From assembly GCA_001787035.1 (NCBI GenBank), contig MFUY01000002.1:7355-47954 (forward strand): a DNA stretch of 40,600 nucleotides. The letters are read 5' to 3'. Below, piece after piece: positions 4,630-37,052 of this stretch. Source of the stretch: Candidatus Nomurabacteria bacterium RIFCSPLOWO2_01_FULL_41_12 (GTDB taxonomy: Bacteria; Patescibacteriota; Minisyncoccia; Phycocordibacterales; UBA9973). The notes below the pieces were generated by a model. That model made no database searches. It was given only the letters and a program-made list of their open reading frames with translations, and was not told where the DNA came from. Position numbers and translations under genes: made by a program. Positions within the stretch are counted from its first letter, which is position 1. Every line of letters starts with the position of its first letter.

Positions 4630-4702
4630 ACTTGTCCCGTACTAAATTTTTGATTACGAGGCATAACGATAAACATTAATAATTAAAATTTTAGTACTGG
4701 GA
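4630..4702 (+). repeat. Family A leader element, copy A2 (ends in the nusG ATG)
   Basis: ACTTGTCCCGTACTAAATTTTTGATTACG...AAAATTTTAGTACTGGGA. TCCC 4635-4638 pairs with GGGA 4699-4702, which includes the A of the ATG. Confidence 0.7.
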
Positions 4703-5244
4703 TGAAACAAGAAACAGAGGGGGCAAGAAATTGGTACGCAATACACACTTATGCCGGATATGAAAATGTCGTCTTGCGTAATTTGCGCCAGCGCATTGAC
4801 TCCCTAGGTATGAACGATAAAATTTTCAACGTTATTGTTCCGATTGAAAAAAAGATAAAAATAAAAGGAGGCAAGAGAGTGGAGGTGGAAGAAAAAATTT
4901 ATCCGGGTTATGTTTTGGTTGATATGATTGTGACGGATGATTCTTGGTATGTGGTGAGGAATACTCCGCGGGTCACCGGTTTCGTCGGCGCGGGAGTAAA
5001 CCCGGTGCCTCTTAAAAAAGAAGAAGTGGAGTATCTTTTCAAGAAGATGGATGCCGGCACAACTAAGCACAATATTGACATGGTTATCGGCGAGAGCATT
5101 CTGATTACCGATGGTCCGTTTAAAGAACTGGAAGGGAAAATTAATTCCATTGACCAAGAGCGTGGCAAAGTTAAAGTGCTTGTTTCAATGTTCGGTCGCG
5201 AGACCCCGGTCGAACTAGATTTCTTGCAAGTCAAGAAAATTTAA
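4702..5244 (+). CDS. nusG: transcription termination/antitermination factor NusG
   Basis: 180 aa. WYAIHTYAGYENVV, YPGYVLVDM and a KOW-type C-terminus ITDGPFKELEGKI. Confidence 0.9.
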   Translation: MKQETEGARNWYAIHTYAGYENVVLRNLRQRIDSLGMNDKIFNVIVPIEKKIKIKGGKRVEVEEKIYPGYVLVDMIVTDDSWYVVRNTPRVTGFVGAGVNPVPLKKEEVEYLFKKMDAGTTKHNIDMVIGESILITDGPFKELEGKINSIDQERGKVKVLVSMFGRETPVELDFLQVKKI

Positions 5245-5258
5245 GATAATGTATCAGA

Positions 5259-5302
5259 GTCGCGCTTAAAGGACGGTTGCGCGACATGATTTCGCAAAAT
5301 CA
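5259..5302 (+). repeat. Family B leader hairpin pair, copy B1 (abuts the rplK ATG)
   Basis: GTCGCGC (5259-5265) - 13 nt loop - GCGCGAC (5279-5285), then ATGATTTCGCAAAATCA. Near-identical copy at 31249-31294. Confidence 0.7.
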
Positions 5303-13470: not shown

Positions 13471-13504
13471 CCTGTCCCGTATCAAGCTTACTTTGGTTCG
13501 GGGT

Positions 13505-27547: not shown

Positions 27548-27771
27548 ATAAAGGTAATATCTTAAAAGGAGTGGTTGTTTCGGACAAGATGGATAAGACC
27601 GTGATTGTAACAGTGTCGCGATTTATCAAGCATCCGCTTTACGGCAAATTTTATAAAGTAAATAAGAAATACAAAGCGCATGACCAGGAAAATAAATATA
27701 AAATCGGAGATAAGGTAGAAATAGTTGAAACCAGGCCGATTTCAAAAGACAAAAGATTTAAAGTGGTATAA
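27544..27771 (+). CDS. rpsQ: 30S ribosomal protein S17
   Basis: 75 aa. [45 protein letters not shown]. Confidence 0.95.
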
Positions 27772-27775
27772 TTAT

Positions 27776-27847
27776 ACTTGTCCCGTTGCAAATTCAACGA
27801 ATGGGACATAAAGGATAAAAATTATTAATTAAAATTTGCAACTGGGA
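27776..27847 (+). repeat. Family A leader element, copy A3 (ends in the rplN ATG; classical S10|spc boundary)
   Basis: ACTTGTCCCGTTGCAAATT...AATTTGCAACTGGGA. GTTGCAAATT 27785-27794 pairs perfectly with AATTTGCAAC 27833-27842, and TCCC pairs with GGGA 27844-27847. It carries three compensatory pair changes relative to A2 and A4. Confidence 0.75.
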
Positions 27848-28218
27848 TGATACAAAACGAAAGTTTAGTTAAAATAACAGATAACGCTGGAGGCACCGTG
27901 GGTAAAGTGTTCAAGATTTTAGGCTCTTCAAAAAAAAGATACGCGACTTTGGGCGAATTGGTTATTATTTCTGTGAAAGTAGCTTCTCCACGAAAAGGGG
28001 TAAAGAAGAAAGACGTGCATCAGGCAGTCGTCGTACGCACCAGAAGCGCCTACAGAAGGAAGGATGGATCTTATATTCGTTTTGACGATAATGCTGTAGT
28101 GCTCTTGGAAAAAGGCAAGCTTGACCCGAAAGCCGGGCGCGTCTTCGGTCCGATACCGAGAGAGCTTGCTGAAAAGGGATTTCAAAAAATAATTTCGCTG
28201 GCGCAGGAAGTAATTTAA
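27847..28218 (+). CDS. rplN: 50S ribosomal protein L14
   Basis: 123 aa. MIQNESLVKITDNAGG. Confidence 0.95.
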   Translation: MIQNESLVKITDNAGGTVGKVFKILGSSKKRYATLGELVIISVKVASPRKGVKKKDVHQAVVVRTRSAYRRKDGSYIRFDDNAVVLLEKGKLDPKAGRVFGPIPRELAEKGFQKIISLAQEVI

Positions 28219-29852: not shown

Positions 29853-29890
29853 CAGGTGTTGGACACCCGAATTCGGGTGTCCAACACCTG
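29853..29890. repeat. Family C hairpin, copy C1: perfect 38-nt palindrome (rpsN-rpsH spacer)
   Basis: CAGGTGTTGGACACCCGAA|TTCGGGTGTCCAACACCTG. Followed by the tandem CACCTGAAG x2. No U-tract. Confidence 0.8.
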
Positions 29891-29910
29891 AAGCACCTGA
29901 AGCATAAAAA

Positions 29911-30297
29911 ATGGATTCAATTGCAAACATGTTAATAGTAATGAAGAATGGAGGTGAAGCCGGCAAAGAGTCCGTACTCTTACCGTATTCTAAAATGAAG
30001 AATGCTATTTTGGAATGTCTGCAGAAGGAAGGTTATGTAAATTCTGTCTCCAAGAAAGTCAAAAAAGATCAGCCGGTACTGGAAGTAGGTCTGATTTATA
30101 TGGAAGAAAAGCCAAAAATCGCAGAAGTTGAAAGGATTTCCAAACAGTCCAGGCGTGTCTATTTTAAAATGAAAGATATTCATAGAGTTAGAAACGGAGC
30201 AGGACTGCTCGTGCTTTCCACACCGAAAGGCATTTTATCCGGTAAAGAAGCGCGCAAAGAACAAGTCGGAGGTGAAGCGTTATTCAGAATTTGGTAA
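29911..30297 (+). CDS. rpsH: 30S ribosomal protein S8
   Basis: 128 aa. DSIANMLIVMKNG, GGEALFRIW. Confidence 0.95.
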   Translation: MDSIANMLIVMKNGGEAGKESVLLPYSKMKNAILECLQKEGYVNSVSKKVKKDQPVLEVGLIYMEEKPKIAEVERISKQSRRVYFKMKDIHRVRNGAGLLVLSTPKGILSGKEARKEQVGGEALFRIW

Positions 30298-30835: not shown

Positions 30836-30888
30836 ATACAGGTGTTAAATACAGGTGTTGGACACCCGGGTTCAGGTGTCCAACACCT
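30834..30888. repeat. Family C hairpin, copy C2 (rplF-rplR spacer) with tandem 13-mer
   Basis: AAATACAGGTGTT x2, then AGGTGTTGGACACC (30853-30866) pairing with GGTGTCCAACACCT (30875-30888). Same arms as C1. Confidence 0.8.
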
Positions 30889-30902
30889 AGAGAATAAAAA
30901 TC

Positions 30903-31248: not shown

Positions 31249-31294
31249 GTCGCGCTTTAATGGACGATTGCGCGACATGATTTCGTAAAATCAT
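31249..31294 (+). repeat. Family B leader hairpin pair, copy B2 (abuts the rpsE ATG)
   Basis: GTCGCGC (31249-31255) - 14 nt loop - GCGCGAC (31270-31276), then ATGATTTCGTAAAATCAT. Confidence 0.7.
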
Positions 31295-31885: not shown

Positions 31886-31943
31886 AGCGAAGCTCACTAC
31901 GGGGCAAGAAAAAATAAATAAATAAAATTTCTGTAAAAAATAT

Positions 31944-32247: not shown

Positions 32248-33519
32248 ATGTTGAATTTTTGGAACAAAATGAAATTAGTCTGGACGGATACTTCACTACG
32301 AAAAAGGGTATTCTTCGTGCTTTTTATATTGATATTGTTCAGACTGCTTTCGGCTATTCCTATTCCCGGCATCGATACATTGCAACTCAATCGATTTCTC
32401 TCTAACAATCAATTTTTCGGTATTTTAAATATATTCTCCGGAGGCGGGCTTTCCAACCTTTCCATTATAATGCTCGGTGTCGGTCCGTATATTACTAGCT
32501 CGATTATTATGCAGCTTTTGACCATTATGGTTCCGGCTTTAAAGAAAATTTACCACGAAGAAGGTGAGGCTGGCAGAAAGAGGTTTACCCAATACTCCAG
32601 ACTGCTTACTGTGCCTTTGGCCGGTCTTCAAGGCTTCGCTCTTTTGGCTATTTTAGAAAGCCAGAATATTTTAGTTAATCTGACGGCTTTTGACAGAGTG
32701 ACGAATTTAATTATTGTGGTTGCTGGGTCAATCTTGCTAATGTGGCTGGGCGAGCTTGTGTCCGAATTCGGCATCGGGAACGGCGTGTCGCTCATAATTT
32801 TTGCCGGTATTGTGGCGACTTTGCCTTCACAGGTCAGCCAGCTTGCCTTCACTTTTGATGTTTCTCAAGTTCCGCTTTATTTGATGTTTATGGTCGTGGG
32901 CGTCTTGGTCATTGCCGGCATTGTCCTTGTGACTGAAGCCGAACGCCCGATTCCCGTCACTTATGCCAAGCGTGTCAGGGGGATGAAAATGTACGGCGGC
33001 GGTTCCACTTATCTGCCGCTCCGGGTCAACCAAGCCGGAGTGATTCCGATAATTTTCGCTCTTTCCATCCTGCTTTTCCCGCAAATGATCGGCACTTTTT
33101 TGTCGCGCTTTGATAATGTGATAATTGCGAAAATTTCCAGCCTGCTTATTTCATTTACACAAACCTCAGTGCTTTATGCAATACTCTACTTTATTTTGGT
33201 ATTTCTTTTTACTTATTTTTATACGGCAGTCACTTTTGACCCCGAGGCGCTCTCCACCAACTTGCAAAAAAACGGTGCTTTTATTCCCGGTATCCGCCCG
33301 GGCGCGTCAACTTCCGACTATATTTCTAAAGTCTTGAGCCGTATCACGCTTCTCGGCGCTGTCTTTCTGGGCTTTATCGCTGTATTGCCTCTCATTATGC
33401 AATTTGCCACCGGGATAGCTGCTTTGGCGCTCGGTGGCACTTCAATCTTGATCGTCGTCTCTGTCGTCTTAGACCTGATGAAAAAAGTGGATTCGCAAAT
33501 CTCCATGCGAGAGTATTAA
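32248..33519 (+). CDS. secY: preprotein translocase subunit SecY
   Basis: 423 aa. IPIPGID, FSGGGLSNLSIIMLGVGPYITSSIIMQLL, RVNQAGVIPIIFA. Confidence 0.95.
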   Translation: MLNFWNKMKLVWTDTSLRKRVFFVLFILILFRLLSAIPIPGIDTLQLNRFLSNNQFFGILNIFSGGGLSNLSIIMLGVGPYITSSIIMQLLTIMVPALKKIYHEEGEAGRKRFTQYSRLLTVPLAGLQGFALLAILESQNILVNLTAFDRVTNLIIVVAGSILLMWLGELVSEFGIGNGVSLIIFAGIVATLPSQVSQLAFTFDVSQVPLYLMFMVVGVLVIAGIVLVTEAERPIPVTYAKRVRGMKMYGGGSTYLPLRVNQAGVIPIIFALSILLFPQMIGTFLSRFDNVIIAKISSLLISFTQTSVLYAILYFILVFLFTYFYTAVTFDPEALSTNLQKNGAFIPGIRPGASTSDYISKVLSRITLLGAVFLGFIAVLPLIMQFATGIAALALGGTSILIVVSVVLDLMKKVDSQISMREY

Positions 33520-33551
33520 AACTACTAGGCAAGACCTAGTCGAAAAAGATT

Positions 33552-34067
33552 ATGTCAAAAAAAGAAAAAATAGAAATAATAATGACAGGGGGAACAATAG
33601 ATTCCTCGTGGAATGGTATTAAAGATACAGCCATTGTAAATGCTCATTCCATAATCCCTGGTTATTTCAAGAAATTAATTATTTATCCGGAAATTAAATT
33701 TACTGAAATTTGTATGAAGGATAGCAGGGAAATAAACCAGGAAGATATTAAAAATATCTTGAAAAAAATTGAAAAAAGTAAAGCAAATAAAGTTCTTATA
33801 ACGCATGGTACATATACTATGCCTGATACAGCAAAATTTCTTGAAGCCAATTTAAAAAGAAAAGATCAAACTATTGTTTTCACAGGTTCCATGGTTCCCC
33901 TAGAAGGTGTTTATCCCACTGACGCAGGTTTTAATCTTGGTTTTGCCATTTCTAAAGTTCAAGAGCTTAAACCAGGGTTTTATATATGTATGAATGGTGA
34001 AACTTTTAGTCCTCAAGAAGTAGTAAAGAATTTAGGCGAAGGGAAGTTCTATTCCATATTTAGATAA
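33552..34067 (+). CDS. asparaginase N-terminal-domain protein (short form)
   Basis: 171 aa. IIMTGGTIDS and LITHGTYTMPDTA match the asparaginase/GatD-type N-domain motifs. Confidence 0.6.
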   Translation: MSKKEKIEIIMTGGTIDSSWNGIKDTAIVNAHSIIPGYFKKLIIYPEIKFTEICMKDSREINQEDIKNILKKIEKSKANKVLITHGTYTMPDTAKFLEANLKRKDQTIVFTGSMVPLEGVYPTDAGFNLGFAISKVQELKPGFYICMNGETFSPQEVVKNLGEGKFYSIFR

Positions 34068-36196: not shown

Positions 36197-36270
36197 ACTT
36201 GTCCCGTACTAAATTTTTGATTAAGATAAATGACCACTCTTAGTAACAATTTAAAATTTTAGTACTGGGA
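36197..36270 (+). repeat. Family A leader element, copy A4 (ends in the map ATG)
   Basis: ACTTGTCCCGTACTAAATTTTTGATTAAG...AAAATTTTAGTACTGGGA. Both boxes are identical to copy A2. Confidence 0.7.
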
Positions 36271-37052
36271 TGATAATTATTAAAACACCAGAAGAAATAG
36301 AAATACTGCGAAAAGGGGGCAGGCATCTGGCGGCTGTGCTTCATAAAGTAAAAGAGAAAATAAAACCAGGAATTTCCACGAAAGATTTGGATGATTATGC
36401 ATTTAAGTTAATTAATGAAATGGGCGACTCTCCCGCATTTTTGAATTATCGTCCAGCCGGCGCGAAAGTTCCTTTTCCTGCAAGTCTTTGTGTGTCTGTC
36501 AATGATGAAGTAGTGCACGGCATTCCAAACAAGGAAAGAATATTAAAAGAGGGTGACATTGTCGCGCTTGATTTAGGACTTAAGCATAAAGGGCTTTTTA
36601 CCGACATGGCATTTACGGTACCAGTAGGGAAAGTGAGTTCTAGCGCTCTTAAATTAATGGAGGTGACAGAGAAGGCACTGCAAGTGGGCATCAATGCGGC
36701 GCAAGCCGGCAATACGGTAGGGGACATCGGCCATGCCGTTGAGAGTTTTGTGCGTGCCCAAAAAAACAGCCAGCAGTACGGTATTGTAGAAGTTCTCTCG
36801 GGGCACGGAGTCGGACGCGCAATACATGAAGACCCCTATATACCCAACTTTGGGAAAAAAGGGAAAGGAGAAAAGTTAGTTCCGGGCATGGTCATTGCGC
36901 TCGAGCCGATGATAAATAACGGCACAAAAAATGTGACTTTGGACGATGACGGCTACACTTTCCGCACAGCTGACAGCAAAAACAGCGCGCATTTTGAGCA
37001 TACAATTTTGATTACCGAAAATGGGCCGGAAATTTTGACCAAAACTTTTTAA
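36270..37052 (+). CDS. map: type I methionine aminopeptidase
   Basis: 260 aa. VVHGIP, DIVALDLG, FTDMAFT, GHGVGRAIHE, ALEPM, FEHTILIT. Confidence 0.95.
   Translation: MIIIKTPEEIEILRKGGRHLAAVLHKVKEKIKPGISTKDLDDYAFKLINEMGDSPAFLNYRPAGAKVPFPASLCVSVNDEVVHGIPNKERILKEGDIVALDLGLKHKGLFTDMAFTVPVGKVSSSALKLMEVTEKALQVGINAAQAGNTVGDIGHAVESFVRAQKNSQQYGIVEVLSGHGVGRAIHEDPYIPNFGKKGKGEKLVPGMVIALEPMINNGTKNVTLDDDGYTFRTADSKNSAHFEHTILITENGPEILTKTF

Follow-up and report, generated by a model that had tools for sequence, protein, structure and literature searches.

Correia elements of Neisseria (CREE or NEMIS) have inverted ends, lie 5' of genes, can supply promoters and form transcript hairpins that are bound and cut by RNase III (PMC2649163). 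The sequence family described here, Family A, was recognised in a stretch of 40,600 nucleotides (nt) from Candidatus Nomurabacteria bacterium RIFCSPLOWO2_01_FULL_41_12 (contig MFUY01000002.1, positions 7,355 to 47,954), hereafter the window, in which four copies end at the start codons of a membrane protein gene, nusG, rplN and map. It resembles the Correia elements in being non-coding, about 70-160 base pairs (bp) in size, present in many copies, bounded by inverted ends, located mostly 5' of genes and polymorphic in its insertions. However, Correia elements insert at TA (or CA) and keep a variable distance to the gene, whereas Family A duplicates TGNA or nothing and stands base-exact at the start; it rebuilds the ATG and pairs with it, shares no sequence similarity with the Correia elements and occurs in another host phylum. 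Neither the neisserial ends nor the TA target (compared with PMC2649163) were found in Family A. In architecture it is somewhat like the REPINs (PMC3337134), in that both are doublets that form hairpins, measure about 70-110 nt, contain variable spacers and persist in lineages, and RAYT-like genes are abundant in the genus that harbours Family A. In contrast to REPINs, its arms are not REP palindromes, they lack the GTAG foot, and they are found at gene starts rather than at gene ends.

Two further comparisons concern the RNA. In MS2 coat-replicase coupling, the start site is masked by a long-range helix until an upstream ribosome opens it. Family A would resemble such a device: the AUG is buried and the other strand of the helix lies where an upstream ribosome would unwind it, many copies being placed 0-8 nt after a stop codon or after a duplicated 5'-terminal AUG. 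Masking structures of the MS2 kind are gene-specific and single, whereas Family A is a dispersed mobile module with putative coupling. The intervening sequences of ribosomal RNA (rRNA), which are removed by RNase III, and the transfer RNA (tRNA) punctuation of mitochondria, which results in leaderless mRNAs, are structured inserts excised by host nucleases while the host RNA works. Such excision would fit the coincidence of the helix base with the first coding base in Family A. Cleavage of Family A would be putative; no tRNA-like fold was found in four loci with the G+C-rich loop form, and no Rfam family matches.

Family A is very probably a dispersed, hairpin-ended insertion element similar to the miniature transposable elements with inverted repeats known as MITEs, forming a superfamily across the class Paceibacteria. 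It is short and non-coding, has terminal inverted repeats and shows presence/absence polymorphism at orthologous sites. The general features of MITEs are found, save for an autonomous partner and, in the main type, a target duplication. The best explanation overall, which we regard as reasonably probable, is that of a mobile leader of MITE type in which the start codon is masked by an RNA hairpin.

All four copies named in a sequence-only reading of the window were in place, each extending from ACTTGTCCCGT to ...GGGATG. The closing ATG is the native start of the membrane open reading frame (ORF), nusG, rplN and map, as read from the N-termini of the encoded proteins. The copies are as follows, with scores from the covariance model R1 and z-scores of the minimum-energy fold:

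27776-27849, plus strand: copy before rplN; 69 bits; z -2.85
27778-27794, plus strand: 5' arm of the rplN copy
27795-27831, plus strand: A/U-rich loop of the rplN copy
27832-27849, plus strand: 3' arm of the rplN copy, with the ATG at 27847-27849
4630-4704, plus strand: copy before nusG, bulged type, loop subfamily a; ATG 4702-4704; 97.6 bits; z -4.19
36197-36272, plus strand: copy before map, bulged type, loop subfamily b; ATG 36270-36272; 91.7 bits; z -3.96
754-672, minus strand: copy before the membrane ORF of 130 amino acids; ATG 674-672; 46 bits

With up to one mismatch, the 10-mer of the 5' box, CTTGTCCCGT, has 11 occurrences in the window where 1.4 would be expected; none of 100 shuffles gave as many. 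A fifth exact occurrence, at 2726-2735 on the minus strand, lies within an ORF and has no partner arm. The gap between the rpsQ stop (27769-27771) and rplN is entirely occupied by the element, and the map copy, with a loop of the form ATGACC-N16-TAAAAT, begins 1-2 nt past the adk stop. The membrane-ORF copy carries a 3-bp mini-hairpin, GGT-TTC-ACC, within its 5' arm. This insert is shared with three copies of the relative G042 (C23:6123, C8:32631 and C5:15494), measures 9-11 nt, and its stem covaries between the copies (GGT/ACC, GAC/GTC, GGC/GCC).

The window is part of a 666-kb assembly of 31 contigs with a completeness of 91%, and the sequencing runs listed as containing the window or the rplN region include no RNA run, all 14 being soil and groundwater metagenomes recorded as DNA. 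Copies in this genome (labelled G000; relatives carry labels such as G003, G006 or G042, and L-numbers denote single copies or loci) were retrieved with model R1 and a profile search. The 0.67-Mb genome contains 21 copies of the main type and three of a sister type, A2, and the genes directly 3' of them include nusG, rplN, map, mreB, ftsA, fba, pilC, purA, pheT, rpsI, a NUDIX gene, membrane protein genes and others. In at least 13 of these 24 copies, no more than about 8 nt separate the element from the stop codon of an upstream co-directional ORF, and many copies take up the whole intergenic gap. Across 18 genomes, 97 of 108 copies end at an ATG that opens a frame of 60 codons or more. Elements are 66-119 nt long (median 77) and encode no conserved ORF; the ends are near-invariant inverted repeats, TCCCGT...ACGGGA or, in the main type, ...TGGGA, and the interior is free to vary. 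One orthologous pair with a long loop (G000 C28:3436-3547 and G009:C6:7655-7766) has the ATG of the gene inside the loop, so that the 3' arm AAAATTTTAGTACTGGGAT is translated as K-I-L-V-L-G in a predicted transmembrane stretch.

The distribution among relatives is patchy. Model R1 matched 13 of the 24 sampled genomes of the genus, with 1-17 matches each, and one of 16 other genera of the order. At the rpsQ-rplN junction the element is present only in G000, and the 30 other genomes of the genus have an empty site. The closest sampled relative, G042 (L14 95% identical), reads TAA-TTTT-ATG at this junction versus TAA-TTAT-element-ATG in G000, with no duplication; it contains eight matches of its own, mostly at other genes. 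The secE-nusG junction is filled in four of 80 relatives and the map junction in none of five. The importance that had been attached to the boundary of the S10 and spc operons did not survive this comparison (one of 31 genomes), and an autoregulatory ribosomal protein operator is rejected.

The insertion site is best resolved at fba, where 23 genomes were compared and two independent insertions and one remnant were found. In about 12 relatives, six bases separate the ATG of fba from an upstream extended -10 box, which mostly reads TGtTAAAAT or TGtTATAAT; this layout would be expected of a leaderless gene. In G000 the same box and the six bases are kept and the element is inserted between position -1 and the ATG, with no duplication. 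An A2 insertion that arose independently in G023 is flanked by ATGAA at either end, and in G006 only a decayed remnant of the 3' arm is left. The copy before ftsA, on the other hand, occupies the orthologous site in at least eight species, with FtsA identities of 66-75%, and most changes in its 3' arm keep the pairing via G-U. Some insertions are therefore old and have been retained. The set of genes preceded by the element varies between species, and it is not a conserved operator of particular genes. Among the roles proposed from the window, a mobile promoter-leader cassette comes closest to the evidence, while a translational operator does not agree with genes that differ between species.

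The sister type A2 shows how the start codon is restored. Its ends are perfect inverted repeats of 14-15 bp, ATCCCGT(TAG/ACG)AAAT and the complement, and in 27 of 31 copies the four bases TGNA stand directly outside both ends (26 of 30 without L249 from genome G076), with a 5-nt repeat in two more. The final base of A2 is an A, so that A+TG is invariably formed at the downstream junction and the native frame is kept; the old ATG now stands 5 nt upstream of the 5' arm. In two copies, L232 and L301 (the latter from the class-wide search and not among the 31), the upstream repeat contains GTG, from which we infer that the insertion may have turned a GTG start into ATG. Three different A2 copies stand head to tail before the gene gap in G240, with TGAA bounding each, as expected from repeated insertion into the duplicated target. 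The A2 pattern occurs in 65 of 151 genomes of the genus (64 of 150 without G076), where the reversed-pattern control returned none, and in 43 of 301 genomes, or 38 of 220 genera, across the class. Class-wide, the interiors are quite different and often G+C-rich and folded. In other Paceibacteria (L223 at G003:C20:44333-44406, L301, L302 and copies from other genera), the conserved outer helix surrounds a 74-nt G+C-rich interior with two covarying inner hairpins, one of which carries GGAGG in its loop, a structured RNA that abuts the ATG. At G093:C23:8905-8973, G155:C10:3651-3734, G125:C1:577143-577224 and G095:C1:331082-331149, the pattern is present on both strands, the two ends reading CAT and ATG, and one element may serve two divergent genes.

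In the main type, ACTTG or ACCTG replaces the upstream ATGNA of A2, there is no duplication, and the 3' foot is TGGGA, which includes a G-U pair and often a bulged C. Both types have five bases between the putative transcription start and TCCCGT. A conserved leader peptide starting at the upstream ATG of A2 was considered and rejected: the frames M-(N/D)-P-V-R follow from the fixed end sequence, they extend over 1-47 codons with scattered stops, and the frame differs in the main type.

Folding models and covariation together show the arms as a predicted 18-20-bp RNA helix whose last three pairs contain the start codon. When the leaders of rplN, nusG and map were folded together with 20-odd bases of coding sequence, the predicted minimum-energy fold was the long helix, with the G of the AUG in its closing pair (z -2.9, -4.2 and -4.0). 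All three bases of the start codon are within the helix: A, U and G have U, G and U of the 5' box as their partners. The three compensatory changes that had been noted in the rplN copy are exact (A-U to U-A, C-G to G-C and U-A to C-G), and the covariation is genuine and far richer than these three pairs. In 88 copies aligned to the model, 96% of the cells are paired and 11 of 18 pairs have changed on both sides. None of 500 shuffles reached any of five measures, a statistic that overstates independence as the copies are related by descent, yet its direction is clear; sliding the partner by 1-3 columns reduced the pairing to 34-58%. This alignment was fitted to the model, and the count was repeated on a structure-blind MAFFT alignment of 15 copies from G000, in which 99.3% of the cells are paired and six pairs have changed on both sides. 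One of the six is the pair with the G of the AUG, where U-G is replaced by A-U (rpsI) or C-G (mreB). In the rpsI copy the ATG has become ATT and CTTG has become CTAG, and the start-codon pair is now A-U. The start codon of the gene thus lies in a covariation-supported helix, as in a start-codon-masking leader. An apparent covariation with a GTG start (CCCC/GGGG) in two copies was discarded, the likely start there being a TTG inside the 3' arm.

The arms pair more strongly in the sense orientation: sense RNA is the more stable form in 101 of 108 copies (-17.1 versus -12.3 kcal/mol for antisense RNA), and G-U or U-G pairs number 321 versus seven A-C mismatches, which fits with a transcribed RNA structure. 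The outermost TCCCGT/ACGGGA is almost invariant and does not covary. A competing proximal partner for the 5' box, proposed from the window as a sign of alternative folds, exists in one loop subfamily only, and the membrane-ORF copy prefers this proximal hairpin (z -0.3). A role as a switch found no support: the proximal partner is absent from the ftsA orthologues, and in G010 (CTC/GAG), the sole informative variant, the distal arm compensates while the proximal one does not. The proximal-hairpin motif overlaps a -10-like box in the loop.

The translation signals of the genome bear on what a buried AUG would mean. Among 435 genes whose starts are unambiguous, only 43 contain GGAG, GAGG or AGGA at -20 to -4. 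Strong -10 hexamers show a sharp maximum 6 nt 5' of the ATG, with 57 of the 435 genes at this spacing versus about 3-22 at other spacings. These counts suggest that Nomurabacterium G000 may make no use of Shine-Dalgarno sites and may have many leaderless mRNAs. According to a survey, the anti-Shine-Dalgarno motif is often missing in Parcubacteria (PMC9297842); the 16S rRNA, which would carry this tail, is not present in the assembly.

Promoter-like boxes are placed differently in the types of the element. In no-bulge copies, a strong hexamer stands 6 nt before the first A of the element in 15 of 42; a laxer scan found a -10-like box there in 33 of the 42, 15 of them with TGn. In A2, 17 of 32 scanned copies have a box 6-9 nt before the upstream ATG. 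At this spacing the transcript should start at the first base of the element, which would then be the whole 5' untranslated region. The rplN copy has such a box nearby:

27764-27772, plus strand: extended -10-like box TGgTATAAT in the last codons of rpsQ, ending 3 nt 5' of the rplN element

A transcript starting at or just inside the 5' end of the element might be driven by this box. In bulged copies the upstream box is usually absent (32/66), and many of them have, within the loop and about 34 nt 5' of the ATG, a TATAAT that is often extended by TGn; TGnTATAAT at this distance is kept in all ftsA orthologues. Loops of subfamily b have the form ATGACC-N16-TAAAAT with a -35-like ATGACC. As A/T-rich loops yield -10-like boxes easily, only the ftsA loop box carries weight. 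At G000 C9:8460-8505, a Family A stem with a loop of only 4 nt is followed by TATAAT.

As filled and empty sites show, the element comes to lie precisely on the opening base or bases of a gene. A2 duplicates 4-5 bp of target, TGNA, and its last A rebuilds the ATG; the main type brings ACTTG in place of the upstream ATG copy and makes no duplication. In a compact genome that does without Shine-Dalgarno sites, the start codon may be almost the sole site where an insertion spares the gene, which could explain why the element abuts real starts nearly universally. The association with start codons could thus largely be a survival filter, as an element that duplicates TGNA and ends in A spares a gene only at the TG of its start. 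Three independent events at fba and the triplet before the gene gap hint that start sites may be actively targeted.

A leaderless or tightly coupled gene would by such an insertion gain a leader that masks its own AUG. Three routes of unmasking are conceivable. A ribosome finishing the upstream ORF would displace the 5' arm; in A2, a ribosome translating the duplicated 5'-terminal AUG would do the same; and in loop subfamily a, the -10 box in the loop may start transcripts without the 5' arm. The A/U-rich 3' half of the loop would then be an open landing site for ribosomes. Modelled on predicted folds and boxes, this account of masking and unmasking is tentative, and we give it somewhat less than an even chance.

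Several observations weigh against a mobile, masking leader, and the first concern its mobility. No transposase linked to the element was found, and pairs of matching ends were found neither 150-4000 nt apart in the own genome nor 250-3200 nt apart in the fetched loci. The four paralogous Y1/HUH RAYT-like genes of G000 (C9:5518-6141, minus; C10:844-1506, plus; C20:9907-10578, plus; C25:1580-2242, plus) all match PF01797 above the Pfam cut-off, and the two tested against NF047646 scored 69 and 49 bits (cut-off 80). Each has its own short G+C-rich hairpin on both sides and, 5' of it, a -10 box set for a leaderless start. These four and eleven Y1 genes of relatives are flanked by other hairpin families and never by Family A arms. 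The main type, including the copies in the window, has no target duplication at rplN and fba. Other points concern the RNA. With -17 to -22 kcal/mol, a helix that covers the AUG should strongly inhibit the translation of essential genes, and the unmasking routes miss those no-bulge copies that have a promoter only just upstream. Transcript starts, joint transcription of both arms and processing are putative. G-T is the most stable mismatch in single-stranded DNA too, and the strand asymmetry only partly excludes a constraint on a DNA hairpin. The shared descent of the copies, noted above for the shuffles, belongs here as well.

Further searches were directed at a partner or a known family. PF01609 is absent from the own genome and PF07282 gave only a sub-threshold match. 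Rfam 15 returned nothing in the window at gathering score but one tRNA; it gave no match on five copies (E<=1) or on the elements at four G+C-rich-loop loci of other species (E<=0.1), and ARAGORN found no tRNA-like fold in these four loci. No exact match to either end pattern was found in viral contigs.

One alternative is a mobile leader specialised for leaderless translators. It would integrate at the start of transcription and translation, maybe guided by the open promoter complex and not just sorted by selection, and its hairpin would make the insertion translationally invisible, either by trimming back to a 5'-terminal AUG through RNase III or another nuclease, or by a ribosome that, loaded on the duplicated 5'-terminal AUG, passes over the closed helix to reach an identical AUGNA at the helix base. 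We consider this unlikely.

It is similarly doubtful that the helix is primarily a processing signal, cut by RNase III or another double-strand nuclease to regenerate a leaderless or near-leaderless mRNA or to separate sub-operons. The base of the helix does coincide with the AUG in a genome with apparent leaderless starts and no Shine-Dalgarno sites, and a gene for RNase III is present (C12:3039-3695, 240 bits, above the curated cut-off). The Correia precedent, in which RNase III binds and cuts the transcript hairpins, points the same way (PMC2649163). Processing would explain the tolerance at essential genes, including copies without an upstream ORF, and for copies with a stand-alone promoter and no unmasking route, nuclease trimming is more attractive. 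However, the stems have bulges and a U-U mismatch, and the conserved -10 box in the ftsA loop is left unexplained. In a stem of some 20 bp, cuts by RNase III usually fall within the stem and not at its base, so that an exact 5'-AUG end would be unexpected.

That the arms act at the level of DNA only, as ends recognised by a transposase or as a single-stranded hairpin for a Y1/HUH enzyme as in REP/REPIN-RAYT systems, with the RNA helix as a functionless by-product, also appears unlikely. The perfect inverted ends and target duplications of A2 would suit it, as would the almost invariant outermost bases, which behave as expected of an end recognised by a protein, and the RAYT-like genes, four in G000 and 1-11 each in 28 of 31 genomes of the genus. 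Yet the ftsA copy has been kept through speciation with mostly pairing-compatible changes, the main-type helix reaches the host ATG by wobble pairs and is compensated there, and the conserved G-U and bulged C impose a fixed asymmetry on the sense strand. None of the RAYT-like genes examined is flanked by Family A arms. IS200/IS605-type Y1 enzymes are not known to make a target duplication, whereas A2 does. A link to RAYT was also rejected by counts: the numbers of Y1 genes and elements do not track each other (17 R1 matches and three genes in G022, no match and 11 genes in G003).

Clearly less probable is a portable promoter, in which the -10 box of the loop, in subfamily b together with the -35-like ATGACC, would drive the gene and the arms would insulate it or be incidental. 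The box of the ftsA orthologues and of many subfamily-a loops and the ATGACC-N16-TAAAAT arrangement are in line with it, but most no-bulge copies have no internal box and a -10 box just upstream instead, the loops of other genera are G+C-rich, structured and without promoter-like boxes, and -10-like hexamers arise by chance in A/T-rich loops. Very improbable is a regulon operator, with a trans-acting protein or RNA that binds the CCCGU/GGGAUG helix and co-regulates about 24 genes: the helix foot is nearly invariant across the class and many housekeeping genes carry the element, but the gene sets differ within the genus, many species have no copies at all, independent insertions and tandem triplets are seen, and no Rfam family matches.

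Other hairpins occur in the same gene cluster. A partial 5' box that had been assigned to Family A upstream of rpsL proved to be a separate 31-nt hairpin of a different family, with no 3' arm at the rpsL ATG:

13471-13503, plus strand: short hairpin before rpsL, 31 nt, directly after the stop codon of the upstream ORF; only the CCCGTA foot in common with Family A

Similar short hairpins are found elsewhere in the own genome. The hairpins that flank two of the Y1 genes recur in the window just 5' of gene starts (at about 29870-29910, 30865-30902 and 33515-33551), the ORFs at 29911 and 30903 being preceded by GGTGTCCAACACC and that at 33552 by CTAGGCAAGACCTAG. The ribosomal protein cluster thus contains several REP-like families. 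A second shared leader of about 40 nt with the core TTGCGCGACATGATTTCG precedes rplK (5263-5302, ATG 5303) and an rpsE-like gene (31255-31294, ATG 31295); in relatives the same genes bear Family A instead, rplK in G044 and G007 and the rpsE-like gene in G042. Short hairpins of the form CTTGCCCCGTAG...CTGGGG, with the CCCGTA foot as in Family A, stand at gene ends, in the window at 31899-31935 (minus strand) and elsewhere in G000 at C4:26373, C5:34709, C10:5756, C15:7389 and C30:49908-49947.

A literature search found no paper describing such an element; its base-exact association with start codons and the reconstruction of the start codon are unusual and, as far as we found, undescribed. About one gene start in 30 in a 0.67-Mb genome bears a copy, including those of essential ribosomal, division and translation genes, and related copies occur in about one sixth of the sampled genera of Paceibacteria. 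For annotation, the family explains recurrent 70-nt 'leaders' and calls for caution against reading them as conserved operators, and a covariance model and a simple end pattern make it easily searchable. For the biology of these bacteria, Family A would be selfish DNA that persists in extremely compact genomes by inserting into the start codon and restoring it. Each insertion may be regarded as a natural experiment in which a leaderless gene is turned into a leadered one, in bacteria of the candidate phyla radiation without Shine-Dalgarno sites.

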